Positions 4,642 to 20,878 of a DNA stretch of 24,000 nucleotides are shown here, one piece after another. The position numbers and the translations under genes are program-made. The stretch is from Bacillus solimangrovi. GTDB lineage: Bacteria > Bacillota > Bacilli > Bacillales > Bacillaceae_N. The first letter of the stretch is position 1. Each line of letters opens with the position of its first letter. The stretch covers positions 59,793 through 83,792 of the forward strand of contig NZ_MJEH01000002.1 in NCBI RefSeq assembly GCF_001742425.1, read 5' to 3'. Under the pieces are notes generated by a model, which was not told where the DNA came from, did no database searches, and worked only from the letters and a program-made list of their open reading frames with translations.

Positions 4642-4908
4642 TTGGTGCAAATAGATAAAAAATACGTTATATATTTTTTAAGTTTCTTAGGTGCTGGCGT
4701 TGCAATGATTGCTTTAGCAGGTATAGGTATTGGGATTGGTACTGCTGGCGGAGCAGCCCTTGAAGGTATTGCAAGACAACCAGAAGTTACTAGTACAATT
4801 CAACAAACACTTCTGTTATTAGTTGTATTACCTGAATTATTCTTAGCATTCCTTGCTTTCGTTGTTGCGATAATTATTATTCAAACAATTAGAAATTGCA
4901 GATGTTAA
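4642..4908 (+). CDS. F-type ATPase c-subunit (proteolipid, AtpE)-like protein, solitary copy
   Basis: GGAG (4631-4634) lies 7 nt before TTG 4642; GTG 4645 is an alternative start. The protein is a two-helix hairpin with a Gly-rich helix 1 (GIGIGIGTAGGAALEGIARQPE). EGIARQPE is identical to the loop of Bacillus AtpE. A Glu in helix 2 (VVLPELF) sits at the same spacing from RQPE as the ion-binding Glu of AtpE. Confidence 0.7.
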   Translation: MVQIDKKYVIYFLSFLGAGVAMIALAGIGIGIGTAGGAALEGIARQPEVTSTIQQTLLLLVVLPELFLAFLAFVVAIIIIQTIRNCRC

Positions 4909-4917
4909 GAGAATTTT

Positions 4918-4947
4918 AACCGCTACTGATTAAAACTTGTAGCGGTT
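4918..4947 (+). terminator. Hairpin terminator after the c-subunit-like gene
   Basis: A perfect 9-bp stem aaccgctac (4918-4926) / gtagcggtt (4939-4947), 10 nt after the stop. The trailing T-tract is weak (aattatatt). Confidence 0.55.
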
Positions 4948-5090
4948 AATTATATTGCATTGATGGTTGAGGTTATTTTCAATTTATGTGCTTTATTACT
5001 TAAGTTTTTCTTGATGGAATCATTTAAATTCTCAAATAACTGACCACATCGAAATTTATTAAGTTTTACAAATAAAAGCACTTAAAAAAA

Positions 5091-5873
5091 TCAGTTACAA
5101 ATACTAGCGATGTTACTATTGTTGCACCTATTACCAATTAAATTGTTATCATCTTGATCTATAATATCAAGGTTCCCATTACCGAGCACATGATTAAAAA
5201 AAACATCATTTTCATTTGAATTTCCAGATAAACTTATTCCGTTTAGAACATTATCATTCACTACATTTCTCTTTATCAAGTTATCGTCTGAATCATCTTC
5301 TATAACAATCCCATTGTTATTACTTATGACATCATTTCCTTTAACTAAATTACTTTTTGCATTGTCCAATTCAATGCCTATAGAATTATTATTACAACTA
5401 TTCTTTTCAATCTTGTTCTGATTTGAATCGGCTAGAAATATCCCCTCAACACCACCATTACAACGATTGTTCATAATTTTATTTTCATTTGAACTAGATA
5501 ACACAATATTTAAACCGTATTGTTGTACAGTGAAATTTTGTACGATTACTCCTGAAGTTCCATTCAGTGTTAAACCATTACCTCCTATCATTGTTCCATC
5601 TAGTACAGGTTTCATTTTCCCTAACCCAATTAAATTTAAATTATCTTTATTTATGACAACATTTTGAACATATGGGCCTCCACTTGCTCGCACAAAAATA
5701 ATATCTCCTTCTTCTGCCTCATTAACTGCTTCTTGAATTGTAGGAAAATCATTTGGCACAACGATTGTTTTTTCGTTCAAAAAAAAGATTGCTAACCCAA
5801 TCACTGAACCTATAAAAATAAGACATACAAAACTACAAATTATTGAAATTATCAAATGTTGTGATGTTTTCAA
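5091..5873 (-). CDS. Membrane-anchored right-handed parallel beta-helix repeat protein (NosD/PbH1-like)
   Basis: TTG start at 5873 with GGTGGAAG upstream. There is an N-terminal TM anchor (LIISIICSFVCLIFIGSVIGLAIFF). Repeated Asn/Gly-rich ~22-aa turns follow (NKIEKNSCNNNSIGIEL, NLVKGNDVISNNNGIVI, NLIKRNVVNDNVLNGISL), as in beta-helix repeats. Confidence 0.75.
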   Translation of the reverse strand: MKTSQHLIISIICSFVCLIFIGSVIGLAIFFLNEKTIVVPNDFPTIQEAVNEAEEGDIIFVRASGGPYVQNVVINKDNLNLIGLGKMKPVLDGTMIGGNGLTLNGTSGVIVQNFTVQQYGLNIVLSSSNENKIMNNRCNGGVEGIFLADSNQNKIEKNSCNNNSIGIELDNAKSNLVKGNDVISNNNGIVIEDDSDDNLIKRNVVNDNVLNGISLSGNSNENDVFFNHVLGNGNLDIIDQDDNNLIGNRCNNSNIASICN

Positions 5874-6100
5874 ACTTCCACCATCCTATACACTTAGCTT
5901 GAACACCTTGCTTAGTCCTCAATCATTTACTATATAGATTGTTTATTTAGTGATTGATAGTCTTTTTAACCATATTGTATGCTTTAACTCATTATTTCGT
6001 TTAGACGATATTCTATAAAAATGGACTATAGTTGTTTCTGTACCTGTATTTTTATTGGATTTAAAGGATAAATCTTTATTGCACTTAGTCTTATTAGAAA

Positions 6101-6140
6101 CAAAAAAGACTTATCAAAAAATTGAAATTTGATAAGTCTT
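6101..6140 (-). terminator. Rho-independent terminator of the ABC/DUF4097 operon
   Basis: A perfect 13-bp stem aagacttatcaaa (6106-6118) / tttgataagtctt (6128-6140). It is followed by a T-run on the minus strand, 13 nt after the stop at 6153. Confidence 0.8.
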
Positions 6141-6152
6141 TCTTGATAATTA

Positions 6153-6944
6153 TTAATCTAAATTGATACTTCCTGATAACGTATGAATTGACAATTTTGG
6201 TCCGTTTGCTCCCAGTTCACTTTGTAACTTATTACCTGCCCCTTGAGAAATGATCTTCTCTGCTGCAAATAATGATGTTTTAATTTTACCTGATTCTGTT
6301 GCTGCATCTACGATTAAGCTATTAGGCTTCTGGTTAAAGTTAACTACAATTTTACCAGAAAGTGTATTAATATTACTATCACTACCTAACATTCCATTGT
6401 GTGAAAGTATTATATTCCCAGTTTGATTGGTAATTACAAAATCTCCATTAGCATTTTCCAATTCTACGTTTCCAGCCACATTTTCACTAAATAATTTATT
6501 ACTATCAATCCCATTTATCGATATATTGCCTGAGTCTGTTGTAAATACTAATTCCTCCGCTTTCAGACCCTCACCAGAAATATTACCTGATGTAGAGATT
6601 AAGCTGATTTTCTTATACATCGTATTTGGTACATCTAGGTATAGTGTTTTAGTTTTTAAATTTACGATGCCTGATGAATTTTCTAAATTTACTTTCAACA
6701 CATTGCCTTCAACTGTTGCAGGAATATCTTCAACATCTTCCATATTTACTTTCACTGTACTATCATTACTTGGACGAACTTCAATATTTTGACCATCCGC
6801 TTTCACATAAATTTCTTCAACGTTTCCTCCCTCGAACGATTTACTTTCAAAGTTTGATGCAGAATCTGAATTGCAAGCGCCCAGTAATAACACCATAAAT
6901 CCAATACTAAATAGTGTAATCATTCTATTGTTTAGCTTTCTCAT
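6153..6944 (-). CDS. Lipoprotein with DUF4097-like beta-strand repeats (putative adhesin fold)
   Basis: ATG 6944 lies after AGGAGG. The signal peptide has a lipobox (LLLGAC). Repeated SGNIS/SGKI/SGSI strand motifs run through the protein, which ends SGSINLD. The start overlaps the upstream permease stop by 20 nt. Confidence 0.8.
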   Translation of the reverse strand: MRKLNNRMITLFSIGFMVLLLGACNSDSASNFESKSFEGGNVEEIYVKADGQNIEVRPSNDSTVKVNMEDVEDIPATVEGNVLKVNLENSSGIVNLKTKTLYLDVPNTMYKKISLISTSGNISGEGLKAEELVFTTDSGNISINGIDSNKLFSENVAGNVELENANGDFVITNQTGNIILSHNGMLGSDSNINTLSGKIVVNFNQKPNSLIVDAATESGKIKTSLFAAEKIISQGAGNKLQSELGANGPKLSIHTLSGSINLD

Positions 6945-8565
6945 GATATCCTCCTTTAGAATAATCAGTTTTATTTATACCCTTTGTTCTTCCTAAGCTT
7001 AAACTACCAGTTTGTACCTGCTGAATCATGAGAGCAGTGATAAAGAACACGACTGTAAGAATTATATAAAGGTTGTTATGTGCAGTAGAAACACCTAAAA
7101 AGTCAAGATAAGGTAAGTCATTTACTGGGCCCATGTACCACCACAACATATAAATAACTTCAAATAGTTTTCTCGATCCACTCAATAATCCTAAAGCAAA
7201 GCTCAATGTAGGAATGAAAAATACACCTACTAACCATGAATAAAAATATGTCATTTGCCCTTGCATTAAGAATTGAACGAATATACCTGATGACATGAGT
7301 ACAGTAATAAAAATCCCAGAAATCCATACAGCAGCAAATTTATATATTGGTGGACAACTAGATAAGATTAACTCTCTAGTAAAGTATGTCTTTTCTCTCG
7401 TACCCATTTGAGACCAAATAACAATTGGCATAACCATTAGAAGAGGTAACCAACTTTGAATTTTGTCAAATGGAATTAAAATACTTCCAGTTATCATTCC
7501 TAAGACTAAAAGATACCACCAAATAGAATTACCTTTTAACATGATTCGTAACTCAGCTCGAATTAAGCGTGATAAATGAATACGTCTACTTTTTTCAACT
7601 GGTGATAACTTGAATCCCTTTTTCTCTGCACTTTCAACAATAAAGTTATTTTTACTCTTAAAGAGTGCAAGCTTTTTATTAAGCAGTTTTTTCTTTTCTT
7701 CCTTAAAGCGTGAAAATATCATAGATGAAAGTAATGTTAGAATCATCGCAATTAACACCCAAATCACGCGTTGTGTTAATAGATGTGAGTCCCACTCAAC
7801 ACCTTGCCAAATAAATGTTGCAATTTGCCCTTCTGTTGGATAATAACCGAAACTTCCCCCTTCTTGACTTTGAGCAATGAAAGGATATTGTATCGCTGCT
7901 TCACTTACCATGTCAGATCGAATCGCATCTAGTCCAAACAAATCCCAAAAACTACTAGGGCTTGCGATTGAAATTACACTAAAGAAAATCCAAAAACAGA
8001 AGAATACGATATTACCTATCACACCTTTTAAAACAGGTAAGACGTCAAATAAAACAGTTAAAGACGCTAATACTAATAGAGAAGGAATAGCGATAAATAG
8101 AAATGGTGCGAAGTAATCCCATAATTGTAGCTGATAACTTTCTCCACGTATTAATTGCATAATGATAAACGCAATCATCATAATACTTTCTATGACAACT
8201 AATACAAGAAAATTTGATATCGCTTTTCCTGAAATGTAACGGAAATTACTAATTGGTGTAGCTGCAATGATTTGTCCAACTTTCAACAATTGATCTTCTG
8301 TTATTTGACTTCTCAACATATAGAATCCAAATAACCATAGCAATAAGGTTGTAAGCATAGCTGCCATGCCGCCAAGCCATGCAGAATTATATACTCCACG
8401 TACTCCCCCAATATAAAATACTTCATAACCAGCTGTAGATGATGGTACACATGCATACCCAATAAAAATACTTAAACCAATAATAATGAGAAATGAATAG
8501 CTTCTCATTTGTTTAATGAGATTATTCTTCATTAAATAAACATACGATTCAAATGTATGGTTCAT
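6925..8565 (-). CDS. ABC transporter permease, fused double membrane domain (546 aa)
   Basis: Its ATG overlaps the stop of the upstream ATPase gene (ATGA at 8562-8565). Two blocks of about 6 TM helices are separated by a basic cytoplasmic linker (FKEEKKKLLNKKLALFKSK...). Confidence 0.8.
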   Translation of the reverse strand: MNHTFESYVYLMKNNLIKQMRSYSFLIIIGLSIFIGYACVPSSTAGYEVFYIGGVRGVYNSAWLGGMAAMLTTLLLWLFGFYMLRSQITEDQLLKVGQIIAATPISNFRYISGKAISNFLVLVVIESIMMIAFIIMQLIRGESYQLQLWDYFAPFLFIAIPSLLVLASLTVLFDVLPVLKGVIGNIVFFCFWIFFSVISIASPSSFWDLFGLDAIRSDMVSEAAIQYPFIAQSQEGGSFGYYPTEGQIATFIWQGVEWDSHLLTQRVIWVLIAMILTLLSSMIFSRFKEEKKKLLNKKLALFKSKNNFIVESAEKKGFKLSPVEKSRRIHLSRLIRAELRIMLKGNSIWWYLLVLGMITGSILIPFDKIQSWLPLLMVMPIVIWSQMGTREKTYFTRELILSSCPPIYKFAAVWISGIFITVLMSSGIFVQFLMQGQMTYFYSWLVGVFFIPTLSFALGLLSGSRKLFEVIYMLWWYMGPVNDLPYLDFLGVSTAHNNLYIILTVVFFITALMIQQVQTGSLSLGRTKGINKTDYSKGGYHEKAKQ

Positions 8566-9437
8566 TGTGTCACACCCAACGACGAAATATAGTAGAGGTA
8601 TGCATCTTCTAATGAAGAAGGCAATGAGGTAGCATTATAATTAGGGCGTTTTTCTGATATAATTCGTGCATGCACTCCGTCACTTCGATGAATAGCGCTA
8701 CTAATCGCATATTGCTCTTGCATGTTTTGAAGCTCTGATGTTGGGATAACACAATTCCAAACTTTATTATCAACACTTTTAATAAGGTATTCTGGCGTAG
8801 TGTGAGTAACTAGTCTGCCTTTTGATAGAACTGCAATGTTAGGTGCAATTGATTCAATGTCTGTTACGATATGAGTAGAAAGAATAACTATCCTATCTGA
8901 TGACAAGGTAGAAAGTAAGTTTCGGAACCTAATCCTTTCCTGTGGATCTAATCCAACAGTAGGTTCATCTACAATTAGTAGTGATGGATCATTTAATAAA
9001 GCTTGAGCAATACCAACTCGCTGTTTCATTCCTCCTGAAAATCCTCCTAATAACCTCTTTCGATCATTGGCTAAATTCAATGCTTCTAATAGTTCATTGA
9101 TTCTTTTCTTAGAAGATTTAATCGACAACCCTTTTATAGCTGCCATGTACTCAAGAAATTCTATTGGATTCATATTTGGGTAAACACCAAAATCTTGAGG
9201 TAAATACCCTAATTCTTTTCGTAAATAATTAGGGTTTTGTGCAATATCAACCCCATTCCATAATATTGTGCCACTTGATGGTTTTTCAATTGTTGAAAGC
9301 ATGCGCATCAAAGTCGACTTTCCTGCCCCATTAGGTCCCAACAAACCTAATACACCGGGTTTTAAATCTAATGTCACATTCTGAAGAGCCTGTTTTTGAC
9401 CATAATTTTTTGAGACTTGCTGTATAGTAAGCTCCAT
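8562..9437 (-). CDS. ABC transporter ATP-binding protein
   Basis: Walker A GPNGAGKST, signature FSGGMKQR and Walker B LLIVDEP are present. GGAGG lies 7 nt upstream of ATG 9437. Confidence 0.92.
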   Translation of the reverse strand: MELTIQQVSKNYGQKQALQNVTLDLKPGVLGLLGPNGAGKSTLMRMLSTIEKPSSGTILWNGVDIAQNPNYLRKELGYLPQDFGVYPNMNPIEFLEYMAAIKGLSIKSSKKRINELLEALNLANDRKRLLGGFSGGMKQRVGIAQALLNDPSLLIVDEPTVGLDPQERIRFRNLLSTLSSDRIVILSTHIVTDIESIAPNIAVLSKGRLVTHTTPEYLIKSVDNKVWNCVIPTSELQNMQEQYAISSAIHRSDGVHARIISEKRPNYNATSLPSSLEDAYLYYISSLGVTQ

Positions 9438-10027
9438 ATAAATACCTCCAATGTAAATCTTTATAATTTTCTATCTTCTTGATGTAACTTTCATTGTTTG
9501 CTTACTATTATCATAAACAGCTAAAGTAAAATTAAGGTAAAATAAAAGCAAAATCGAAGTAAGATTATAAGCTTTTAACTTAATGGTCCATTAATAATGT
9601 TTCTTCTATATCAAATGTAGATCTTATTATTAAAAACAGATCATCTCAGCTATTTTGTAAAAAACATCTCATTATAAAAATTTATTGTTCATTATGTTCA
9701 ATCATTAAAAAGGGATTATTTGTGAAGAGTGATCGCGAGAAATTGTTACAGATTGATTATTTTAAGATCAAAATTAAAGAAGAATTTGCGAAGAACGAAC
9801 AAGTAACTATTAAAGAAACTAAGCTTTGGTGGTTACTATAGAACTGTTAATTATTTCGAAAATAATTCGATTTCTTTTCAAACATAAAAGTAGCACTACA
9901 GAATTAATCTAATCAGTAGTGCTACTTCACATTAATACATTACGTTCAGAAAGACGAGATGTTATTGGGAGTACTAGCAAGGAAATAGAATCAAATGTCG
10001 CTAACACATTTAAGTATTTTAACTTGT

Positions 10028-10059
10028 AAGATAAAACAACCACCTACTAAAACAGGTGG
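10028..10059 (-). terminator. Possible terminator downstream of the 10172-11783 ABC pair
   Basis: A 6-bp GC-rich stem ccacct (10040-10045) / aggtgg (10054-10059). It is followed on the minus strand by ttgttttatctt. Confidence 0.4.
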
Positions 10060-10129
10060 ATTTAGAAATATATATCATCGACTATTGTCTTTTCCTTCAC
10101 TAAACTGATTAACTTTTTCTATTACTATA

Positions 10130-10150
10130 TTGAAATATTTAATATTTCAA
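10130..10150. repeat. Perfect 21-bp AT-rich palindrome
   Basis: The sequence is ttgaaatatt-t-aatatttcaa, 22 nt downstream of the permease stop at 10172. Confidence 0.6.
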
Positions 10151-10171
10151 ACCACAAGAAATAATTTTATA

Positions 10172-10867
10172 TTAGCTTACATCCTCAACCTCTACTTTAC
10201 GTATTGCTATGTATGCTATGAAAATACCTAAAACTGCAAGAAAAGTTGGTATTAGGATTATTGAACCAACAGAAAAACTATTAGTATTAAAACCTAAAAC
10301 CGTTACGATAAGGATGGAGGAAATTATAGTGACTGGCACAGACTTTTTTTTCATACCAAAATATAACGGGATTAAGCTTAATCCGGCAGTAGCAACAGAA
10401 TTAGTAAGGATTTTAAGCAACTGTTGAATTATAATTAATACGCTTAGTTGTTCTGGTACAAATTTAAAAAAGTTATCCATTACAATAAAAGAAGCAGATA
10501 TAAATATACTAGAAAGGATAATGGTTGTTAAACTCCAACAAACCACAATTATTAATTTTGCTCCCAATAATGCTTTTCTGTTTACAGGGTATGAAAACAA
10601 AACTAAGATGGTTTTATTTTTATATTCCTCAATAATTAACTTTGCAATAAGTACTGATGCAAAAATTGTAAAAGTTGCACCAACAAGTAAATTCAAAATG
10701 TTAAAAGCTTCTGAATATTGTCCGAAAGCAATCACACCATTATCTTTTCTCTCTGCGAAAGGAATAAGAAACATGAAAAATAGTAAGATTAAATTAGCAA
10801 GAACAATCCACTTATTATATACACTAAATTTGAATTTGTTTCTTTCTAGTTTGATTAGTCTTAACAT
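10172..10867 (-). CDS. ABC-2 type small permease (6 TM), antimicrobial-peptide/lantibiotic-immunity-like
   Basis: AAGGAGAG lies 9 nt upstream of ATG 10867. The N-terminus MLRLIKLERNKFKF followed by 6 hydrophobic helices is typical of small ABC-2 immunity-type permeases. It is coupled by overlap to the upstream ATPase gene. Confidence 0.8.
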   Translation of the reverse strand: MLRLIKLERNKFKFSVYNKWIVLANLILLFFMFLIPFAERKDNGVIAFGQYSEAFNILNLLVGATFTIFASVLIAKLIIEEYKNKTILVLFSYPVNRKALLGAKLIIVVCWSLTTIILSSIFISASFIVMDNFFKFVPEQLSVLIIIQQLLKILTNSVATAGLSLIPLYFGMKKKSVPVTIISSILIVTVLGFNTNSFSVGSIILIPTFLAVLGIFIAYIAIRKVEVEDVS

Positions 10868-11783
10868 CTGTGCTCTCTCCTTTTATAAGGTTTAAATAAT
10901 AATTTTCTAATGATTCAGTTTTTTTGTGAATAGACTCAATCTCTATATCACTAATTATTAGTCTCTTTGCAATTTCTTTTTGTGGAACATGAGAGTCATA
11001 GATGTGAATAACTGATTTACCTATAAGTTTAAAGTTTGTAATGTGCAATTCATTTTCTAAGATTTCAGTTGTGTATGTTGAATCCTTTGTAACTATTTCA
11101 ATATAATCAGGTTTTTTTTCGCGTATAGTATCCAATCCAATTTCCTCAATTAATTTACCATTATGAAGAACACCAATCGTATCAGCAAGATGTTCTATTT
11201 CTCCTAAAATATGACTAGAAATTAAAATAGTTGTTCCATACGCCTTGCTCATCATTTTTAATATATTTCTTATTTCTCTAATACCCGAAGGATCTAATCC
11301 GTTAATAGGTTCATCCAAAATGAGAAGTTTAGGATTAGTAATTATAGATCTTGCAATACCCAGTCGTTGTTTCATACCTAATGAAAAGTTTTTTACAGCT
11401 TTATTACCCGTATTTCTCAAGTTAACAAGTTCTAATGTGTCATCAATTGCATCCATATCGTTAAAATTCATATACTTACAATGAATTTCTAAATTTTCTT
11501 TTGCAGTAAGTTCGTCATACAAAATAGGAGTTTCTATGATATTACCTACTTTTTCTAAATATTCATAAGATGAACTTGAAATAATATCACCGAAAATCTC
11601 TATCTCTCCACTTGTTGGTTTAATTAAATTTACAAGCATTTTCATAACCGTCGTTTTTCCTGAGCCATTTGGACCTAGTATTCCGTAAATCTCTCCATTT
11701 TTTATATTCAAATTAACATCTGACACAACCTCTATCCCGTTAAATGATTTAGTCAAGTGACTTGTTCGTATAGTGTAGAACAT
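10824..11783 (-). CDS. ABC transporter ATP-binding protein
   Basis: Walker A GPNGSGKTT, signature FSLGMKQR and Walker B LLILDEP are present. AAGGAG lies 8 nt upstream of ATG 11783. The 3' end overlaps the permease start by 44 nt. Confidence 0.92.
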   Translation of the reverse strand: MFYTIRTSHLTKSFNGIEVVSDVNLNIKNGEIYGILGPNGSGKTTVMKMLVNLIKPTSGEIEIFGDIISSSSYEYLEKVGNIIETPILYDELTAKENLEIHCKYMNFNDMDAIDDTLELVNLRNTGNKAVKNFSLGMKQRLGIARSIITNPKLLILDEPINGLDPSGIREIRNILKMMSKAYGTTILISSHILGEIEHLADTIGVLHNGKLIEEIGLDTIREKKPDYIEIVTKDSTYTTEILENELHITNFKLIGKSVIHIYDSHVPQKEIAKRLIISDIEIESIHKKTESLENYYLNLIKGESTDVKTNQTRKKQIQI

Positions 11784-11845
11784 AAAAATATCTCCTTTTT
11801 TTTAAAATTTAGAGTCTACAACTTTACCTTCTTACTCTAACGTTT

Positions 11846-12580
11846 TTACTTTCGTCGAGATATTGTAAGGTAACTACATAAAAAACCTATAAAACACCAT
11901 ACCGTCAAAGCTATCCATGTTACACCTTTTATATCAAAGTTTTCAGGAGATAAAGCTCCTCTCACTGCGTTGGCCATATGCTCTATCGGTAGTAACGCAT
12001 GGATTATTTCTAACCACTCTGGAAGACGTTCGGCTGGAAAATTAATAGGTGAAAAAAGTAATACACCGATCATAAGTACTTGAGAAAGCAGTTGTGCTAT
12101 AGAAGGAGGTAACAAAACTGATATTGCGTAACCTACACAAATGGAAGTTAATCCTACAAAAAGTAGTATAGCTATTGCAAATGGATTGAAGGAAACTAAA
12201 ATATCAAAACGCACAGAAGCTATAATTAGTGCAAGTATAATACCAGGTATCGTTATAATAATCCATACGATTGCGTCTACTAACAGATATAAGAGACGAG
12301 GCAATGGCCATGTGAGCATATACTCAAAAGTTCCTTTCGTTTTTGACTCAGCAATCCCCTGAGGTAATATAACAAAACCAATAGCAAGTAGAATTACTGT
12401 TGGAGCCCCAGTTGTTAGGTAAATTGAACTCGTGTTATCTAACTCTGGTATTAAAAATGAAAAGCCAAAAACAATGCCCACAGACAACAATGTTTGAACT
12501 ATGATAAACAAAGGAAACATTACCCGCATGCTCAATAATTTCCAACGTAATAATAGAAAAAAACCACTGTTAAACAACAT
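11846..12580 (-). CDS. ABC-2 family transporter permease (DrrB-like)
   Basis: I place the start at ATG 12580 (AGGAGG 9 nt upstream) rather than the ORF-track start at 12640. The protein has 6 TM helices. The start overlaps the ATPase stop by 11 nt. Confidence 0.8.
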   Translation of the reverse strand: MLFNSGFFLLLRWKLLSMRVMFPLFIIVQTLLSVGIVFGFSFLIPELDNTSSIYLTTGAPTVILLAIGFVILPQGIAESKTKGTFEYMLTWPLPRLLYLLVDAIVWIIITIPGIILALIIASVRFDILVSFNPFAIAILLFVGLTSICVGYAISVLLPPSIAQLLSQVLMIGVLLFSPINFPAERLPEWLEIIHALLPIEHMANAVRGALSPENFDIKGVTWIALTVWCFIGFLCSYLTISRRK

Positions 12581-13520
12581 TATCTGTAACCTCCTGATTC
12601 TCCATTTTCTCTTGAGGTTTGATCCATTTAAAATATGCATCTTCTAATGTTATTGGACTTAAAGTATATTCTTCTATTTCGTTTGTTAAACGAAGATGTT
12701 CTACCCACTGTACAGCTTCAGAAACAAATGCTTGCGGAATTGACAAAAATACCCTTGCACCTGAATGCATAGTAATATTAGCAAAATCAGGTATTGGAGG
12801 GATAGAGTGTTCGGGTTGAATAACTAATTGTAATCGAAGGTTTCCTTCAAGATCTCTTTTTAATTGGGATGGAGTACCCGAAGCAAGTACTTCTCCTTCA
12901 CTAATAATAGCTAAACGATCTATAAATTGCTCAGATTCTATTACATTATGTGTAACTATAAGAACGGCAACCCCATTCTCAGCAAGTAAACGAATTTGAT
13001 TCCACAATAAACGTCTTCGGACTGGATCTATATCATTAGTAGGTTCGTCAAGTATGACGAGTTTTCCAGGAACTACTACCGTCATACAAAAAATAACTAA
13101 ACGTTTAATCCCCCCTGACAAATTTGTGGCCATTTTATTAGCCCATGGCTCTATATTTAGTTCCTTTAAAAGATAATCTGTGCGTTGAGCTACCTTATGT
13201 CGATCACCTTTGCGCATTCGTCCAGCTAATTCAATAGCTTGCTTAGGTGTTAATCCCTCTATTGATACTTGTGATTGCGGTTGCATAGTACATAGTTTAC
13301 GTGCTTGTTGAGGATTAGAAACAATATCTACTCCATCTATTGTAATCGTACCTGAACTAGGCTTCATTGAACCAATTATTTGCGAAACAAGTGTAGTTTT
13401 TCCTGCACCATTAGGTCCTAATAAACCAAATATTTCTCCAGGATTAACGGATAAAGAAATCTGATCATTCGCTTTGACACCCTTTGAGTACTCTTTTACA
13501 ACATTATTTACTAACAGCAA
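12570..13520 (-). CDS. ABC transporter ATP-binding protein (DrrA-like)
   Basis: TTG 13520 has AGGAGG upstream. Walker A GPNGAGKTT, signature LSGGIKRL and Walker B LVILDEP are present. Confidence 0.9.
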   Translation of the reverse strand: MLLVNNVVKEYSKGVKANDQISLSVNPGEIFGLLGPNGAGKTTLVSQIIGSMKPSSGTITIDGVDIVSNPQQARKLCTMQPQSQVSIEGLTPKQAIELAGRMRKGDRHKVAQRTDYLLKELNIEPWANKMATNLSGGIKRLVIFCMTVVVPGKLVILDEPTNDIDPVRRRLLWNQIRLLAENGVAVLIVTHNVIESEQFIDRLAIISEGEVLASGTPSQLKRDLEGNLRLQLVIQPEHSIPPIPDFANITMHSGARVFLSIPQAFVSEAVQWVEHLRLTNEIEEYTLSPITLEDAYFKWIKPQEKMENQEVTDNVV

Positions 13521-13593
13521 AAAACCATCCTCCTTTTATTTGTTTTAATGAATCCCATAGAAAAAAAGCGATTTAATTTGTAAACACATAACA

Positions 13594-13637
13594 ATTATAC
13601 TAAATAGAATTTAAATACTAAAAAGAATTTATATTCT
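13594..13637. promoter_or_regulatory. Divergent promoter/operator region between the TetR gene and the ABC operon
   Basis: A consensus TATAAT lies on the minus strand (complement of 13594-13599), with a weak -35 TTTAGT 17 nt upstream. An 18-bp tandem direct repeat (13596-13613 tatactaaatagaattta; 13614-13631 aatactaaaaagaattta; 16/18 identical) overlaps it. The short inverted repeat AGAAT-TTAT-ATTCT lies at 13624-13637. Confidence 0.45.
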
Positions 13638-13687
13638 ATACAGTATGTTAACTAGATATGTTATTATTGTCAAGAGGAGGAAGAAAA

Positions 13688-14326
13688 ATGAGTAGAAAAC
13701 GCTTAACCCAGGAAGAACGAAAACAAGAAACACGGAAAATGTTATTGGAATCAGCAGCTGAAACTTTTGCTAAGCTTGGTTTTCATGGAGCTTCTGTAGA
13801 TAAAATCGCAGAGTTTGCTGGATTCACTAAAGGAGCAATATACGCACATTTTAAATCTAAAGAAGAGTTATTCCTTGCCTTATTAGAACAACAAATGCAA
13901 TCACATGTTAATACCATTCATCAAATAATGGATGAAGAACATTCATTAGAACATTTCATTAAAAAAATGGGGCATTATTTTGACATGGATAGAGAGCAAA
14001 ATCAAGCCTGGAGTTCACTTAATATGGAATTTCTTTTATATGCTATGAGAGATGAATCAGTACGCCAAAAATGGACAGACATGATCTTGGAATCCGTAGA
14101 ACAACTTTCAGATGTAATAACAAAAATGAAGTCGGATGAAGAGGGAGAATCTAATTTGTCACCTGAAGAACTAGCCTGGACCATTCTATCAATAGAAAAT
14201 GGGATGGCTATTTTTAATATTATTGCAGGAAACAATACCCCATCAAATTTATACGGAAAAGCACTACAAAATATTCTCCAGCCTTCCTCGTGTAAAGACA
14301 TTGATTCAAGCTCCAAAATAAAATAG
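13688..14326 (+). CDS. TetR/AcrR family transcriptional regulator
   Basis: ATG 13688 lies 7 nt after GAGGAGG (13674-13680). The N-terminal HTH (FHGASVDKIAEFAGFTKGAIYAHFKSKEELF) is a typical TetR signature. The gene is divergent from the ABC operon. Confidence 0.9.
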   Translation: MSRKRLTQEERKQETRKMLLESAAETFAKLGFHGASVDKIAEFAGFTKGAIYAHFKSKEELFLALLEQQMQSHVNTIHQIMDEEHSLEHFIKKMGHYFDMDREQNQAWSSLNMEFLLYAMRDESVRQKWTDMILESVEQLSDVITKMKSDEEGESNLSPEELAWTILSIENGMAIFNIIAGNNTPSNLYGKALQNILQPSSCKDIDSSSKIK

Positions 14327-14364
14327 TTCCAAACGATCAATATTTTTCTGTCTATTATATATTT

Positions 14365-14392
14365 AGGCTGTCGTACTAATTTTCGACAGCCT
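14365..14392 (+). terminator. Hairpin downstream of the TetR gene (possible terminator)
   Basis: A perfect 9-bp stem aggctgtcg (14365-14373) / cgacagcct (14384-14392). No clear T-tract follows. Confidence 0.35.
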
Positions 14393-14494
14393 GAAACGTA
14401 TCCCAAAAGTTATTAATAGTATGAAAAAAACAACATGAAAGGCAAACATCGTTTAAATTTCAAGCTGATTAATGTTCTTCCAAACAGATTAATG

Positions 14495-14530
14495 GTAAAA
14501 TAAAGAACCTAACCATGTTAAGGCTAGGTT
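14495..14530 (-). terminator. Probable terminator of the 14538-15023 gene
   Basis: A 9-bp stem with one mismatch: aacctaacc (14506-14514) / ggctaggtt (14522-14530). It is followed on the minus strand by ctttatttta. Confidence 0.5.
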
Positions 14531-14537
14531 AAATTAA

Positions 14538-15023
14538 TTATAATGAAAATTCTTTTTTTAAAATCTTCGCATAGATATTGCCGTTATTTAAAAATGTTGA
14601 TTCATCTAAGATTCTAGAGTTATCCCAATTCAATAATACTTGTGGGATTCTTAAATAAAACTCTAGACCATTCCAACCTATAGAATCAAAATTATGAATA
14701 CAGTAATCTATGAAATTAGCAATATCTTTTTCATTAAAGGTTATATTAATTAAATCATCCCTAAAACTATCTATGTACTCGCTTGAATGTGAAGTACCTG
14801 TCAGATTACCGGCAAAATATCCTCCACTTTGACTAAAAGATAAAAATTGAATATCATTTTTAAATACAGTTTTAGGTATTTCTAAAATAGCTTTAGCATT
14901 GTCCTTTGTTATTTCATATCTTCTTACTAATTCAATTAACATTTCAATATCCGAAAGATCAAAGTTTTCATTTAAAAATTTTTTATATAATTGATTAAAC
15001 ATTCTAGAAATTTCAATATCCAA
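14538..15023 (-). CDS. Hypothetical protein, 161 aa, no recognised motif
   Basis: TTG 15023 lies 7 nt after AGGAG (complement of 15031-15035). It is the only long ORF at this position and has its own terminator. I recognised no family. Confidence 0.6.
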   Translation of the reverse strand: MDIEISRMFNQLYKKFLNENFDLSDIEMLIELVRRYEITKDNAKAILEIPKTVFKNDIQFLSFSQSGGYFAGNLTGTSHSSEYIDSFRDDLINITFNEKDIANFIDYCIHNFDSIGWNGLEFYLRIPQVLLNWDNSRILDESTFLNNGNIYAKILKKEFSL

Positions 15024-15144
15024 ATTACCACTCCTAATATTTAGAATTATTTGTATTTTATCACAGATTAATTTTTTCGCAAATTCCCAATAAATCTACT
15101 ATGACTCATCAAAATTATGAATATCAAGTCCATTTTTAAACGTA

Positions 15145-15507
15145 ATGAAAAAATTAAAAGCTCAAGAACAAACAATTAATTCTAAAACTTGTTTTGGAGA
15201 TATATTAGAAGAGGCGTTGAAGAAAGCATATGCGGACATCCGAACTTGGTGTGAATTAATTGTGGAAGAGGGTTTCTTTAATAATGTTATACGGAGATAT
15301 GAGCCAAATATTATGTTTACAAAAGTTAAGGATATTAAGGGTGACTTTGTTAATGAACTTGCTTCAGTAACTGATTTATTTGAAAAATCTTGTCGTTGGA
15401 TGACTGGACACAGTCAGCATACCGAGACTCAGCATATTCGGGCAACTAAAGAGTCTTTTAATGACGATATAAAATATATTCATAGACTTTACGAGCAATA
15501 CAAGTAA
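15145..15507 (+). CDS. Hypothetical protein, 120 aa; possibly a 3' gene remnant
   Basis: A clean ORF, but ATG 15145 has no Shine-Dalgarno and an in-frame stop lies at 15118. It is co-directional with the next three genes. Confidence 0.4.
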   Translation: MKKLKAQEQTINSKTCFGDILEEALKKAYADIRTWCELIVEEGFFNNVIRRYEPNIMFTKVKDIKGDFVNELASVTDLFEKSCRWMTGHSQHTETQHIRATKESFNDDIKYIHRLYEQYK

Positions 15508-15557
15508 AAGACTAAGTTGTTGTATTAATAAACGAGTGAAAAGCAAGAGGTGAATTT

Positions 15558-16106
15558 ATGGGGTTAAATATAAGAAACTTAAAAAAAGGATTGGAAATAA
15601 AAATTAACAAATGTATTGCTCTTTTAGGAGAAGAATACGCATCTTTAAATTACACTATATACTTTTATGAAAACCGAGAAAAACTCCTTAAAGAACAAAA
15701 AAATAAGCCTGATATGAAGGCGGAGCAATATACACAGATATTCAATGGTGAAACTGAGACTGCGGGTGTAACTATTGGAGAAATGGGGAGAATAAAAATT
15801 TTCCTATTTCTTTTCGGGGATATAAAAAGAGACCCTAATGAAATCATTAGTTTAATCGGTAATTTATATCATGAGATTCGCCATGCTTGGCAAAATGAAA
15901 ACAAGTTGTTCCAAAATGAAGAAGAAATATCTACAATTGATGGAAATCTCGATTCATATCTTAAACTGCCATCTGAAAAGGATGCATATCGATTCCAGGA
16001 AGAACAAATGCAAAAACATGGAGAAAAAATATTAGAGATTTTTGGTTTTAATTTAAAGTTTACATATCAGTTAAAGCCTGAAATAAGAAAGGTTATATAT
16101 CCATAA
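15558..16106 (+). CDS. Hypothetical protein with HExxH zinc-metallopeptidase-like motif
   Basis: GAGGTGA (15547-15553) lies upstream of ATG 15558. The motif is LYHEIRHAWQ, with downstream acidic residues (SEKDAYRFQEEQ) that could supply a third ligand. Confidence 0.65.
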   Translation: MGLNIRNLKKGLEIKINKCIALLGEEYASLNYTIYFYENREKLLKEQKNKPDMKAEQYTQIFNGETETAGVTIGEMGRIKIFLFLFGDIKRDPNEIISLIGNLYHEIRHAWQNENKLFQNEEEISTIDGNLDSYLKLPSEKDAYRFQEEQMQKHGEKILEIFGFNLKFTYQLKPEIRKVIYP

Positions 16107-16151
16107 AATCAATTTTGAGTAACGGTATCATAATAAATAAAATCATAGTAA

Positions 16152-17159
16152 TTGTTGGTGAATAGAGTGAACAAAAATGAGGTAAAAGAACATATTAGGT
16201 TTTATATGGATAACTATAATATTTATCCCCGAACACTTAAGACTGAAAATATTGGGAATAGGGATAAGCAGTTTATAGGGGATAAGAATAAGAGAAAGTG
16301 TAGATTTTGCGGAAAAGAAAAAGAAGAAACAACATTTAAAAAGGTAGCCCATGCTATACCTGAATTAGTTGGGAATAAGGTTTTGATTTCATTTGAAGAA
16401 TGTGATGAATGTAATAAAGTATTCTCTAAACTTGAAAGTGAGTTAGCAAATTATCTCTCATTTGAACGCTCTACCACAGGTATAAGAGGGAAAACTGGGA
16501 TTCCAACCTATAAGCATAAAAACGGTTTAAGGATAGAGCATGACAAAGAAAAGAGCAATAGGTTCATCATTCAAGATTATATTGACAGCGGAAACATTGT
16601 TGATGATGCCACTGATAATTCCTTTACGATAAAGGGAGAGAGATTTCCGTTTATCCCAATGGCTGTTTATAAATGTTTTGTAAAAATGGCCCTTTCGATA
16701 ATGCCCAAACATTATTTGCCTTATTTCTGGGAGACATTTGAGTGGATTAGAGAGGAAGACCATTCACAACATGGAAAAGTGGTTTGTAAAGTTTTTGAAC
16801 AGTTTATTCCAGGGGGAAAACCATTTGCTGATATAGAAATGTTCTTGGCTATACGTAAATGGGAATCGAGAGAAAAAACGCCATTTGGTATCTTTTTAAT
16901 TTGCTTCGGAAATTTTTGTTATCAGGTTTATCTACCATTTGCAGGACCAGATACTATCGAAAGTGAGTTAGAAGAATCACAAGAGACATTAAAGTATTTG
17001 TTGTTACCTTGTAAGTATGCACTGGTCTTGCCAGAAGGTACAATTCATACAATTTCTAAAGATTTTTCATCAAGTGAAAAGACGAAGGGACAAACAATAG
17101 ATATTACATACTCTTATGATAAAAAAGAGGTTTTAAGAGAATTTAAAAATGAATCATAA
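16152..17159 (+). CDS. Hypothetical protein with N-terminal CxxC...H...N...CxxC HNH-like zinc-finger module and an unknown C-terminal domain
   Basis: The sequence KCRFCGKEKEETTFKKVAHAIPELVGNKVLISFEECDECNKVF has the spacing of a zinc-finger beta-beta-alpha-Me (HNH) nuclease. The start is ambiguous: TTG 16152, GTG 16167 or ATG 16206, all in frame. Confidence 0.65.
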   Translation: MLVNRVNKNEVKEHIRFYMDNYNIYPRTLKTENIGNRDKQFIGDKNKRKCRFCGKEKEETTFKKVAHAIPELVGNKVLISFEECDECNKVFSKLESELANYLSFERSTTGIRGKTGIPTYKHKNGLRIEHDKEKSNRFIIQDYIDSGNIVDDATDNSFTIKGERFPFIPMAVYKCFVKMALSIMPKHYLPYFWETFEWIREEDHSQHGKVVCKVFEQFIPGGKPFADIEMFLAIRKWESREKTPFGIFLICFGNFCYQVYLPFAGPDTIESELEESQETLKYLLLPCKYALVLPEGTIHTISKDFSSSEKTKGQTIDITYSYDKKEVLREFKNES

Positions 17160-17231
17160 TAACAAAAACTAATCGTTTTAAGGATTAGCTTTCTTAAAAT
17201 CTTGTTAAGGAAAATAGGGAGGGTAAGATAA

Positions 17232-17648
17232 ATGGAAACAAATGAAAAAGAAGAATTGATGCTCTTGAGTCGTGAAGCTGTGTTAAATGAAATAGGAATT
17301 AAGAGTGAGGTTGAACTTGCAGAAAACAGCAATTTCTTAAGATTCTTAGGTTTAACTAATAGACTTGATATAAGAGTTTTAGAGAAAATGCTCCCAGCAA
17401 TTCCGAATGTGACAAATCTACTTAAGCAAAATCAGGATTTTATACTAAATGGTATAAAGGAGCAAAAAGAGGTTTCTGTTAAGGCACTCGAAAGTTTTAA
17501 TAAAACAAAAGAAATCATTGCTGAAAAATTAAAAAAGGATAATCTCACTCCCGAACAATGGATAGAACTTATAAAATTGCTCGATAAAAGTAAACGCCAA
17601 GCAACCCCTGATTATACAACAGAAGTTGTTAATTTAGAGGTTGCTTGA
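17232..17648 (+). CDS. Hypothetical helical protein, 3' end replaced by IS66 sequence (disrupted gene)
   Basis: GGGAGGG lies 8 nt upstream of ATG 17232. From 17590 onward the reading frame runs inside the IS66 terminal repeat, so the last ~19 codons and the stop are IS-derived. Confidence 0.5.
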   Translation: METNEKEELMLLSREAVLNEIGIKSEVELAENSNFLRFLGLTNRLDIRVLEKMLPAIPNVTNLLKQNQDFILNGIKEQKEVSVKALESFNKTKEIIAEKLKKDNLTPEQWIELIKLLDKSKRQATPDYTTEVVNLEVA

Positions 17649-19251
17649 CGTGTGTATCACTTTTTATCGGTACCTTGCAAATAGCCGGTAGATCCGTTGA
17701 CCACGGCAAAACTTTATCGATTTCTTCTTTATTGGTTAAATCGATATTTGGTAGCACTTCAAACAAATATTGAAGATAATGAAAAGGACTTAAACCATTC
17801 TCTTTTGCGGTTTCAACCACACTATACATCACGGCACTCCCTCTAGCACCTCGCGGTGTATTCGAGAACATCCAATTTTTTCTCCCAATCACAAACGGTT
17901 TAATGGAACGTTCACTTCTGTTGTTATCGATTTCTAAATGACCATCTAATAAAAACGCTTCAAGTTGATTCCATTGATTCAAACAATAAGTAATCGCTTT
18001 GCCAAGGGCGCTTTTGGGTAAAACACGATCCTTTTGTTCATGAAGCCATGCTGAAAAAAGGTCCAAAATGGGCCTGCTTTTTTCAAGTCTCTGCTCATAT
18101 CGTTCTGTAGGGGTGACATGCTTGAGTTTTTTCTCGATAGAATAAAGTTGATTACAAAAGCGTAAACCTTCGCTCGCCTTCACCTTTTTCCTCTCTTGTA
18201 AGTCAGGTAAAGCCTTTAAAGCTTCATCAAACTTACGTCTCGCATGCGCCCAACATCCCACAAGGATAACATCCGGTACCTGATTATAACCACGATATCC
18301 ATCTACTTGTAAAAACCCTTGAAAACCCGTTAAAAAACTTTTCGGATGCTCGCCTGCTCTTGTTGGTTGATAATCATAGAGAACAATCGGGATATCTTCT
18401 TGTCCTGTACGATATAACCACAGATAAGATTTGGTTGTAGCTGATCGTCCAGGTTCACGTAAGACTTGGAAAGTCGTTTCATCCGCATGAAGGATGGTTC
18501 GATTAAGCAGATGTTCATGCATCCTTTCATATAAAACCACTAACCATTGATCAGCTCCATATAATAACCAATTTCCCATCGTTTGTCGTGATAAAAAAAT
18601 TCCCATTCGTTCAAAATGTTTTTCTTGACGATAAAGAGGTAAACCTTCTACATATTTTTGAGACATAATATACGCCATAATGGAGGGAGAAGCGATACTT
18701 TTAGGAAAGGCAGGTGCTGGCATATTCGCTGTTACAATCGGCGTAGCGATCTCATCTTGTTCACACTGACGACAAGCATAGACATATCGTTTATGTTCCG
18801 TCACCTTTACTTCCGCAGGAACAATTGTCAGTTCCTTTCGGACTTCTACACTCATCTCATGTAACGTACCACCACAGCATGAACAAACCTGTTCTTCATC
18901 AGCTAAACGATATTCAACCGTTTCGATAGGCAAGTTTTGGACAGACTCATCCCTATGACCACGTTTCTTTTTACGACGATAGGTGATCGTTTCAACAGCT
19001 GGTTCGGGTACTTCAGAATCACTTTCTTTCTCGGCCTCATTAAACAGTTCTAGAGCGAGTTGATTTTCCGGTGTTTTTTCGCTAGACGTACCAAACTGTT
19101 TTTGTTGGCTAAGACGAAATTGTTCTTCGTACCATCTCACTTTTTCCGTGAGTTCTTCTACTTGAGATTGAAGAGATTCAATTGTAGGTTGAGTGGAATG
19201 TATTGTTTTCATAGATAAAGGGATTCGACAAGAATATTCAAATTCCTTCAT
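17629..19251 (-). CDS. tnpC: IS66 family transposase TnpC
   Basis: 540 aa. An N-terminal leucine-zipper-like helix is followed by a Cys cluster (CSCCGGTLHEM...YACRQCEQ) and a DDE-type core (HADETTFQVL, VDGYRGY, GCWAHARRKF). This matches IS66 TnpC. Confidence 0.9.
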   Translation of the reverse strand: MKEFEYSCRIPLSMKTIHSTQPTIESLQSQVEELTEKVRWYEEQFRLSQQKQFGTSSEKTPENQLALELFNEAEKESDSEVPEPAVETITYRRKKKRGHRDESVQNLPIETVEYRLADEEQVCSCCGGTLHEMSVEVRKELTIVPAEVKVTEHKRYVYACRQCEQDEIATPIVTANMPAPAFPKSIASPSIMAYIMSQKYVEGLPLYRQEKHFERMGIFLSRQTMGNWLLYGADQWLVVLYERMHEHLLNRTILHADETTFQVLREPGRSATTKSYLWLYRTGQEDIPIVLYDYQPTRAGEHPKSFLTGFQGFLQVDGYRGYNQVPDVILVGCWAHARRKFDEALKALPDLQERKKVKASEGLRFCNQLYSIEKKLKHVTPTERYEQRLEKSRPILDLFSAWLHEQKDRVLPKSALGKAITYCLNQWNQLEAFLLDGHLEIDNNRSERSIKPFVIGRKNWMFSNTPRGARGSAVMYSVVETAKENGLSPFHYLQYLFEVLPNIDLTNKEEIDKVLPWSTDLPAICKVPIKSDTHVKQPLN

Positions 19252-19260
19252 CTGTAATTA

Positions 19261-19617
19261 TTATAGAATCGTTCTTGCATGTACGGCTTGATGTCCTTGT
19301 TTTTGATGAAAAGAAAATCCATCAAGAAGCCATCTAAACTGCCGTCTTGATATGGTAAGTGGTACATTAGGAGATTGAGTTGGCCATTCAAACGTTCCCT
19401 TTTCTAACCTGCGATAGTGCAACCAAAAACCATTATGTTCCCAAACAAGAATTTTTAGTTTATCGCGTGAGCGATTGCAAAAAACAAATAAACAAGAAGA
19501 AAAGGGATCTAACTCAAACTCTTCCTTTACAATGACTGCGAGTCCATCAATAGATTTACGTAAGTCAGTTGCCCCTTGTGCCAGGTATACCTTTTCAATC
19601 GCTTTTTCTGAAATCAT
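19261..19617 (-). CDS. tnpB: IS66 family accessory protein TnpB (Orf2)
   Basis: 118 aa. DLRKSIDGLAVIV...LFVFCNRSRDKLKILVWEHNGFWLHYRRLEKGTFEWP is the characteristic IS66 Orf2 sequence. It overlaps the tnpA stop by 4 nt. Confidence 0.9.
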   Translation of the reverse strand: MISEKAIEKVYLAQGATDLRKSIDGLAVIVKEEFELDPFSSCLFVFCNRSRDKLKILVWEHNGFWLHYRRLEKGTFEWPTQSPNVPLTISRRQFRWLLDGFSFHQKQGHQAVHARTIL

Positions 19618-19934
19618 AATTCTTTTACCGACTGCATGACTTGGAGAAGTACTTGTGAAGTAAAAGGTCCATCTAGTTCGATGGTTACTTCATTCATATG
19701 AATACGAATGGTAGTATTGATTTCTTCTTCTATAGTAGGAACACTCATTGGAATCCAATTTGCGGACTTATTCTTATTTGGTTCTTCCGTTTCAGGGGAT
19801 AATTTTTTCAGCCAGTAATAAAGCCGATGAACCGGAAGGTTCTGTTTTTGACACCAAGCAGCTTTTGATAGCCCACTTTCTTTAAAGTCAAGGATATAGG
19901 CTTCCCATTCTTTCTCTATTCGTTGTTTTTTCAT
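19614..19934 (-). CDS. tnpA: IS66 family accessory protein TnpA (Orf1, HTH)
   Basis: I place the start at ATG 19934, 7 nt after GGGAGG. The track's GTG at 19949 sits on top of that RBS. It is a small HTH-like protein (GLSKAAWCQKQNLPVHRLYYWLKK). Confidence 0.8.
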   Translation of the reverse strand: MKKQRIEKEWEAYILDFKESGLSKAAWCQKQNLPVHRLYYWLKKLSPETEEPNKNKSANWIPMSVPTIEEEINTTIRIHMNEVTIELDGPFTSQVLLQVMQSVKEL

Positions 19935-20047
19935 AGAAAAACCTCCCACATATATCAGTATGTAAGAGATTATCTCATGGATTATTTACAGATTGTACGT
20001 GGGCACTATTTGACGCTTACTTCCAAACAGATGACAAGTTATTGATT

Positions 20048-20097
20048 TCTAAAAAACCGATAAATACACATATATTACAATGTGTACTTATCGGTTT
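20048..20097 (-). terminator. Rho-independent terminator of the thioesterase operon
   Basis: A 17-bp stem with one mismatch: aaaccgataaatacaca (20054-20070) / tgtgtacttatcggttt (20081-20097). It is followed by T6 on the minus strand, 23 nt after the stop at 20120. Confidence 0.8.
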
Positions 20098-20119
20098 ATG
20101 TATTTCTTTATATTTGAAA

Positions 20120-20878
20120 TCATTTCTTTAATAGGTCATTACTAATAATCTCTAATACTTCTGCTGTACGATTATTAAGGAAGAAGTGCTCACCTTCAAC
20201 TTGATGCACCTCACAATTATTAGAAGTGTGTTCCCTCCATTCTTCTAAATATTCAATAGAAGTATAAGGATCATTTGTTCCACCTATTACTGTAATGGGG
20301 ATATTTAATATTTTTTCTTGTTCATAAGAATATGTCTCCACCATTTTAAAATCGTTCCTAATAATAGGTATAACGAACTCCATTAGTTCTTTATTTTGCA
20401 AAAGTAACTCTGGTGTTCCATTTAGTTCTCTGAGTCGATTAATAAATGTTTCTTGGTCAAGTTTATGAATTGGTGGTTTTAAACGAGGAATATGAACTGC
20501 ATTTCTTCCAGATAAAAACAGCCTTTCTGCATTATTAATCTTTCTTCTTCTCAACTCTCTTGCTAACTCAAAACAAATCAACGCTCCCATACTATGACCA
20601 AATAAAGCATATGGTCTATCAATATATGGCTCAATTTCCTTCGCAATTTCTTTAACTAAAAAAAGAATATTATCATATGATGCCTCACCTATTCGATTTT
20701 CACGTCCTGGTAGTTGTATTGGACATACTTCTATTTTATTTGAAATACTAGACATCCATTGATGATAAATTGTTGCTCCCCCACCTGCGTATGGTAAGCA
20801 AAAAAGACGTACGGAACTACTATTAGAAAATTTATTAACAAATAACCAAGGACTATTTTTCATTACCGTTTTTTGCAT
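20120..20878 (-). CDS. Type II thioesterase (NRPS/PKS editing thioesterase, GrsT/SrfAD-like)
   Basis: AGGAG lies 7 nt upstream of ATG 20878. The protein has FCLPYAGGGATIY, the GHSMG nucleophile elbow and a C-terminal GEHFF histidine motif. Confidence 0.9.
   Translation of the reverse strand: MQKTVMKNSPWLFVNKFSNSSSVRLFCLPYAGGGATIYHQWMSSISNKIEVCPIQLPGRENRIGEASYDNILFLVKEIAKEIEPYIDRPYALFGHSMGALICFELARELRRRKINNAERLFLSGRNAVHIPRLKPPIHKLDQETFINRLRELNGTPELLLQNKELMEFVIPIIRNDFKMVETYSYEQEKILNIPITVIGGTNDPYTSIEYLEEWREHTSNNCEVHQVEGEHFFLNNRTAEVLEIISNDLLKK

Follow-up and report, generated by a model that had tools for sequence, protein, structure and literature searches.

A 24,000-nucleotide stretch of the Bacillus solimangrovi genome (assembly GCF_001742425.1, contig NZ_MJEH01000002.1, positions 59,793 to 83,792 of the forward strand), referred to here as the window, carries at positions 14538-17589 five open reading frames (ORFs) that had been predicted, from the sequence alone, to form a novel defence or toxin-type system. 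The segment is probably a decayed fragment of a defence island, the working part of which would be an HNH_5-family nuclease that stands alone in most genomes and is accompanied here by a clade-specific zincin-like protein of 182 amino acids (aa). Judged by its homologies, the region is a mosaic left by rearrangement and not a unit. For the window itself this result is mainly corrective, as the apparent five-gene system reads as rearrangement debris around two intact genes.

The core of the island can be traced to a mobile element. Positions 15142-17589 align without gaps in blastn to positions 8976-11423 of a 21-kb Bacillus subtilis locus (JXHR01000028, locus L001) at 98.98% identity, with 25 substitutions. 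In L001 and in two further loci (L087 and L088) the same DNA lies downstream of the TniQ/TnsD genes of a Tn7-like transposon. Since nothing else of the B. subtilis locus finds a match in the window, the island core is a piece of transposon cargo that has been cut at both ends. The cargo of Tn7-like transposons is known to be rich in defence genes (PMC8649781). There, four co-directional genes occur complete together, separated by 44-72 nt, in the order 851-aa RloC-like ABC ATPase, 182-aa zincin-like protein, 330-aa HNH_5 nuclease and 167-aa protein. Upstream of the ATPase gene, L001 additionally encodes a DUF1835/DUF3658 protein and three co-directional genes of 197-276 aa without a family match (3525-6525). 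Megablast of window positions 14400-17700 against plasmid and phage collections returned no match.

At the left end of the fragment, the 120-aa ORF taken by the original prediction for a small accessory protein is a 3' fragment of the ATPase gene. Its identity to the 851-aa B. subtilis protein is 98% over residues 732-851, and about 730 codons of the gene are gone from the window copy. The match of the stub to the PADLOC candidate model PDC-S06 (E=4.5e-16) is confined to positions 750-847 of the model's 851, whereas the intact B. subtilis homologue matches the same model over its full length (residues 47-847, E=5e-86). The intact protein also matches AAA_13, SMC_N and LmuB, and contains a Walker A motif (GENGSGKS), an ABC signature (SEGEQ), a D-loop and a CxxC (PCIFC) inside a long insert. 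An N-terminal ABC ATPase with a long insert bearing a CxxC is the published layout of the Rad50-like anticodon nuclease RloC (PMC3458546, PMC3710099). The ATPase, the coiled-coil insert and the CxxC hook are deleted in the window but present in the intact homologue. In relatives, matches to the PrrC model are limited to the ATPase region, and a sequence search of solved structures with the ATPase gave generic ABC matches only. Within the stub, the sequence RWMTGH (Rx4H) at residues 84-89 fits the HEPN motif Rx4-6H. The stub is nevertheless at most a candidate HEPN domain, because Pfam and PADLOC scans found no HEPN, Abi_C or PrrC match over it and a distant Comamonadaceae homologue (L035) does not share the motif's arginine. 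The left breakpoint itself, at 15142, falls 3 nt ahead of an internal ATG.

The right end is formed by an insertion sequence (IS) of the IS66 family. The last ORF is indeed cut by this element, as had been proposed: its identity to the 167-aa protein of B. subtilis is 97.5% over residues 1-120, and the homology stops exactly at 17589. The 167-aa protein has no family match, and its C-terminus, lost in the window, looks hydrophobic. Elements of the IS66 family characteristically carry tnpA, tnpB and tnpC between terminal inverted repeats of the GTAAGCG type and are flanked by an 8-bp target duplication. The element in the window begins with GTAAACGCC at 17590 and ends with GACGCTTAC at 20020, and the domains DDE_Tnp_IS66, zf-IS66, LZ_Tnp_IS66 and TnpB_IS66 were found on its called genes. 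No 8-bp target duplication is present at its flanks (17580-17589 and 20021-20028; cgataaaa versus ttccaaac), and the 3' remainder of the 167-aa gene is absent from the whole window. The missing duplication fits a secondary rearrangement, and the element therefore probably marks a deletion or recombination and not a simple insertion, which implies an IS-associated deletion or a recombination between IS copies. Flanking by mobile elements, as originally described, applies to this side of the island; at the left breakpoint no mobile element is visible.

The divergent 161-aa ORF lies outside the conserved fragment, and nothing ties it to the other genes. A search of 5.8 billion proteins recovered only the B. 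solimangrovi protein itself, and the ORF has no match in Pfam, PADLOC, NCBIfam or PHROG. It is probably a real orphan gene, because the chance of a 161-codon open frame at 26% GC (guanine plus cytosine) is about 5e-7 per start by our own arithmetic and its stop is followed by a terminator-like hairpin at 14530-14506 of the minus strand. This hairpin is the one exception in a promoter and terminator scan that otherwise remained at background level. An Rfam scan of 13500-20500 found no RNA family, and an NCBIfam scan gave no useful match.

All five ORFs are present where they had been reported (Table 1), and the gaps of 50, 45 and 72 nt between the four co-directional ones agree with the 45-72 nt given before. 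The description of the segment as a compositionally distinct, AT-rich island is not borne out, as the conserved fragment has a GC content of 31.6% against 32.4% for the whole window, in which 2.4-kb segments range from 28.1 to 38.8%. A value as low as 25.8% occurs only in the 0.8 kb around the 161-aa ORF, and the true GC outlier of the window is the IS66 element, at 38.9%.

Table 1. Features of the island and its right-hand flank (positions in the window).
Feature	Position	Strand	Remarks
161-aa orphan ORF	14538..15023	-	TTG start; outside the conserved fragment
Tn7-like transposon cargo fragment	15142..17589	+	2,448 bp, truncated at both ends; blastn
120-aa ORF, 3' remnant of an RloC-like ABC/SMC-type ATPase gene	15145..15507	+	AAA_13; PADLOC PDC-S06; pseudogene stub
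182-aa DUF3920-like zincin (HExxH...E) protein	15558..16106	+	intact
330-aa HNH_5 nuclease-family protein	16167..17159	+	intact; the 335-aa ORF opens at TTG 16152
Truncated last gene	17232..17589	+	first 120 of 167 codons; the 138-aa ORF runs into the IS to 17648
IS66-family insertion sequence	17590..20020	-	tnpC 17629-19251, tnpB 19261-19617, tnpA 19614-19949

Of the two intact genes, the second encodes a nuclease-family protein. The 335-aa ORF contains a zinc finger of the form CxxC...H...N...CxxC and matches Pfam HNH_5 (PF14279) at residues 50-98 with 36.1 bits against a cut-off of 27.5, so that its earlier description as zinc-finger HNH-like holds at the level of motif and family. Both the score and the metal-finger residues place it among the His-Me finger nucleases, from whose other HNH families it differs by a conserved C-terminal part of about 230 aa in a full-length family of about 320 aa. 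The closest homologue is the 330-aa B. subtilis protein (97% identical), and homologues make GTG at 16167 the likely true start, rather than the upstream TTG. In an alignment of 16 diverse homologues C45, C48, H62, N70, C79, C82 and N83 are invariant (CRFC...AHAIPE...GN...ECDxCN), as are several C-terminal positions. The protein also matches phrog_26663, a phage protein family without an assigned function, over its full length (E=5e-43). Its AlphaFold2 (AF2) model is confident (predicted local distance difference test, pLDDT, 85.9; predicted template-modelling score, pTM, 0.87); Foldseek with the full-length model found no significant match in PDB or BFVD, and a sequence search of PDB found no match. 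In the classification of Jablonska et al. (2017; PMC5714182), HNH_5 (PF14279) is listed under group 1 and is the sole family of the uncharacterised group 8. A literature search retrieved no functional study of either intact gene.

Relatives of about 310-340 aa occur in Bacillota, Pseudomonadota, Bacteroidota, Campylobacterota and many lineages of metagenome-assembled genomes; the gene is found in at least 255 species genomes of GTDB from many phyla, and on 96 plasmids, 76 of them from Acinetobacter. Its surroundings were compared in 78 loci (75 non-redundant) by calling ORFs and clustering three genes per side. Across the 75 loci no conserved partner emerged, with minor exceptions: B. subtilis and three Comamonadaceae loci have a PDC-S06-type ATPase gene immediately upstream, and some neighbours recur within individual clades. 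Among the 128 immediate neighbours are HmaB, DpdF, LmuB, ThsB/TIR, Avs2, PD-Lambda-3_B, PDC-S02 and PDC-S06, together with type IIG and type IV restriction enzymes and type II methylases, and Pfam adds HEPN_LA2681, Mrr_cat, AbiH and YhcG. As far as gene neighbourhoods can tell, this pattern points to a self-contained mobile gene at home in defence islands. It also agrees with the defence-type setting originally assigned to the island, as do the match of the stub to PDC-S06 and the residence of the intact block in Tn7-like cargo.

Two groups of relatives show local peculiarities. The Acinetobacter homologues come from 76 plasmid records, many of them conjugative, and on A. baumannii plasmids (L108, 1172-2560) the homologue is annotated as a longer HNH endonuclease of 462 aa with an extra N-terminal region. 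In Lysinibacillus, the gene upstream of HNH_5 encodes either an Abi_C protein or an uncharacterised 270-aa protein. In L104-L107 (approximately 4073-6020), an HNH_5 gene whose product is 51% identical to that of the window follows 85 nt after an Abi_C (HEPN-type) gene of 280-290 aa, and a TnpB/Cas12f1-like gene also precedes it; here, too, the nuclease may have a local partner, in this case a gene of RNase type.

The first intact gene encodes what is best described as a small putative zincin. The metallopeptidase-like HExxH noted before is present as HEIRH at residues 105-109, and this assignment, too, stands at motif and family level. H105, E106, Q112, E140 and A143 do not vary among 61 relatives, of which at least 90% also keep H109 and D142. 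Of the 61, 46 match DUF3920 and 13 match DUF6782, a putative metallopeptidase family, while the window protein itself scores below the DUF3920 cut-off (18.1 versus 27.3 bits). An HExxH followed by an invariant downstream Glu is common to the 182-aa protein and to zincins such as DUF3920, DUF6782, ImmA/IrrE and SprT-like proteins. Matches to M78, M91 and SprT-like families are weak and sporadic in the same set (M78 3/61, best E=0.0011; SprT 1/61). With so few matches to Peptidase_M78, and with a helix-turn-helix (HTH) gene adjacent at L097 alone but neither in the window nor at most other 182-aa loci, the protein does not belong with ImmA/IrrE. The AF2 model (pLDDT 90.5) has as its best PDB hits the zincins 4l7a and 7y7o, with probabilities of 0.2-0.5; these nearest folds, a putative zinc peptidase and YbeY, are not significant. 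The family is narrow. A word-indexed search recovered 23 clusters, all at least 56% identical and all named ones from Bacillaceae, and no more than 82 relatives turned up when 1.84 billion representatives were searched exhaustively with a HMMER profile.

The original proposal envisaged that the 182-aa and 335-aa genes would co-occur. They do so in about six Bacillaceae lineages, but each is also found without the other. The 182-aa gene precedes HNH_5 by 45-53 nt in the window, in the cargo of B. subtilis, in Bacillus manliponensis (L003) and in Viridibacillus arvi (L096), where the pair stands beside a Gabija-like pair. The two genes have adjacent locus tags in Bacillus infantis and Bacillus wiedmannii, and are adjacent on the metagenome contig L110 as well. 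The 182-aa gene occurs without HNH_5 in Bacillus mycoides, near CRISPR-Cas, and in Bacillus cereus, between Mrr and DndB/FRG genes; the lone gene at L097 is the one that follows the HTH gene, and more distant relatives adjoin a DncV-like nucleotidyltransferase or a KAP NTPase. In three scanned loci of the 182-aa gene (L091, L093, L097) tblastn detected no HNH_5 remnant. On comparative grounds the pairing is therefore genuine, yet it does not extend beyond the HNH_5 clade whose members share at least 65% identity. A Pseudoalteromonas plasmid gene, likewise of 182 aa and upstream of HNH_5, was considered as a second such pair and rejected, the protein being unrelated.

Near-identical copies of the cargo have decayed in different ways. 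In L001 a stop codon replaces the invariant E140 (E140*) of the 182-aa gene (9392-9940), next to an intact HNH_5, in L087 and L088 HNH_5 (10610-11602) carries W232*, and in L086 an inversion (682-1473, 5358-5558) splits HNH_5 at codon 67 together with a neighbouring 276-aa gene. Each B. subtilis-type copy that keeps the ATPase thus has a broken middle gene, and the B. solimangrovi copy keeps both middle genes and has lost the ATPase. Such a pattern, seen in a small number of independent elements, could mean that the full gene set is costly, or it could be the ordinary decay of cargo.

These observations may be put together as follows. A deletion or recombination in B. solimangrovi took the first ~730 codons of the ATPase gene, and an IS66-linked rearrangement the 3' end of the last gene, leaving only the middle two genes intact. 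The HNH_5 protein would be the effector, a predicted His-Me-finger DNA nuclease whose conserved C-terminal part of about 230 residues probably serves target recognition or regulation. Alone in most genomes, as a mobile gene of defence islands, it would either serve as an abortive-infection nuclease or cleave foreign DNA, modified DNA for instance, as type IV restriction enzymes do. The zincin-like partner in one Bacillaceae clade is more plausibly an accessory protein or an independent neighbour than an antitoxin, and none of the other three ORFs (the 161-aa orphan, the 120-aa stub and the truncated last one) would contribute to a system. Confidence in any specific mechanism for the two proteins is much lower than in the outline of a decayed island with a working nuclease. 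McrA-type enzymes are type IV (modification-dependent) HNH nucleases and bear a general resemblance to the HNH_5 protein. By analogy with them, it would be a single-gene HNH nuclease with an extra domain, without a methylase partner, mobile and situated among defence genes, but it has no sequence or structural similarity to McrA-type binding domains.

Several points weigh against this outline. The proposed defence role derives solely from gene neighbourhoods and from carriage in Tn7-like cargo, and the enrichment of defence genes near HNH_5 is qualitative only. PADLOC has no model for either intact gene; the original expectation that a novel island would draw no PADLOC match is wrong for the stub. 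The role given to the C-terminal part is a guess, since the full-length HNH_5 model has no structural relative in PDB or BFVD. Finally, the four-gene block recurs in a second, diverged and apparently intact version on contig L110. This contig begins inside the ATPase gene, and its visible genes appear intact: an ATPase tail (97% identical), the 182-aa gene, HNH_5 (82%) and the last gene (90%). With a diverged block intact, the four genes could act together, and the ATPase-less copy in the window may be non-functional.

Such joint action is the substance of an alternative that we consider unlikely, in which the fragment descends from a multi-gene system, broadly Septu-like, with an RloC-like ATPase as sensor or regulator, the zincin and HNH_5 proteins as effectors and possibly the 167-aa protein as a further component. 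The window copy would then be a dead remnant, because its ATPase and last genes are destroyed. The contiguous, co-directional arrangement with gaps of 44-72 nt in both the Tn7-like cargo and the diverged contig speaks for it, and the breakage of one middle gene in each ATPase-keeping copy is what a costly combined system might show, although the latter comes from three or four closely related elements only. A PDC-S06 ATPase of 886 aa also lies directly upstream of HNH_5 in distant Comamonadaceae, namely Delftia, Acidovorax and Ottowia (L030 and L033, 7122-9782 and 9842-10963; L035, 6471-9131 and 9992-10960), with a gap of 59 nt in L030 and L033 and only 22-28% identity to the Bacillus ATPase. 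Yet the ATPase is present at only 5 of the 78 HNH_5 loci (3 or 4 of them independent), PDC-S06 is catalogued as a stand-alone candidate, and intact 182-aa and HNH_5 pairs occur without it in B. manliponensis and V. arvi. The likeness to Septu (PtuA and PtuB) lies in an ABC-type ATPase gene followed by an HNH gene in the B. subtilis cargo and the three Comamonadaceae loci. It does not extend to the proteins: PtuB models fail to match the 335-aa protein even at E<=1, and PtuA matches the Comamonadaceae ATPases weakly (~1.5e-5) and is not among the matches of the B. subtilis ATPase. In Bacillus, moreover, the zincin gene sits between the ATPase and HNH genes, and the linkage is seen in a few loci only.

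It is very unlikely that the 182-aa and HNH_5 proteins form a toxin-antitoxin or toxin-immunity pair, with the nuclease as the toxin that the small upstream protein neutralises. A small upstream gene at a short distance of 45-53 nt would suit such a pair, as would co-inheritance in several Bacillaceae lineages with similar divergence (73-80% versus 70-74% identity). However, the obligate co-occurrence of type II toxin-antitoxin pairs is not seen, with about 70 other HNH_5 loci devoid of the 182-aa partner and solitary 182-aa genes in B. mycoides, in B. cereus and in relatives further away. The 182-aa family also retains an invariant, catalytic-type HExxH...E motif, and the E140* copy in L001, beside an intact HNH_5, argues against the 182-aa protein as an essential antitoxin.

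HNH genes are common as homing endonucleases, and the existence of a PHROG family for HNH_5, together with its carriage on plasmids and transposons, might suggest a selfish homing-type endonuclease or a prophage gene without a defence role. This is highly improbable, as only 2 of 50,697 phage records carry HNH_5, the contexts are not introns, inteins or phage modules, and a large conserved C-terminal part is retained across phyla. A novel five-gene defence or toxin system across 14538-17589 is hardly credible. Its ORFs are real, closely spaced and in a defence-type setting, but two of them are incomplete genes (the 120-aa stub and the truncated fifth ORF), and the 161-aa one is without homologues and not part of the conserved fragment. 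HNH_5 lacks a conserved partner in 75 loci, and assemblies of B. solimangrovi alone contain the full set of five. Of the proposed system there survives no more than the pairing of two genes within a single clade of Bacillaceae.

The useful lead is the HNH_5 family, which is spread over hundreds of species from many phyla, plasmids and transposon cargo, often stands beside known defence genes and is absent from PADLOC. Should it protect against phage, a common single-gene nuclease would be added to the defence catalogue, and its pairing with the zincin in Bacillaceae would give a manageable example of immunity in which a nuclease has a protease as its accessory. A bolder and rather doubtful extension holds that the family of about 320-aa proteins is a widespread, unrecognised anti-phage nuclease, wired in Bacillaceae to the zincin and possibly to the RloC-like ATPase as a protease-assisted system. 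The reciprocal knock-outs in B. subtilis would in that event reflect the cost of the full set.

Beyond the island, the window contains on the minus strand (5091-13520) a dense run of genes comprising three ABC-transporter ATPase/permease sets, a NosD/beta-helix protein, a DUF4097 protein and an uncharacterised 546-aa gene, with a divergent TetR regulator beside it at 13658-14326. This run looks like export or immunity-type transport, unrelated to the island. Just past the right end of the IS66 element, at 20054-20097, an 18-nt inverted repeat (94% complementary, with an 8-nt loop) is probably the terminator of a minus-strand thioesterase gene (20120-20878), which lies upstream of the repeat in the direction of reading.

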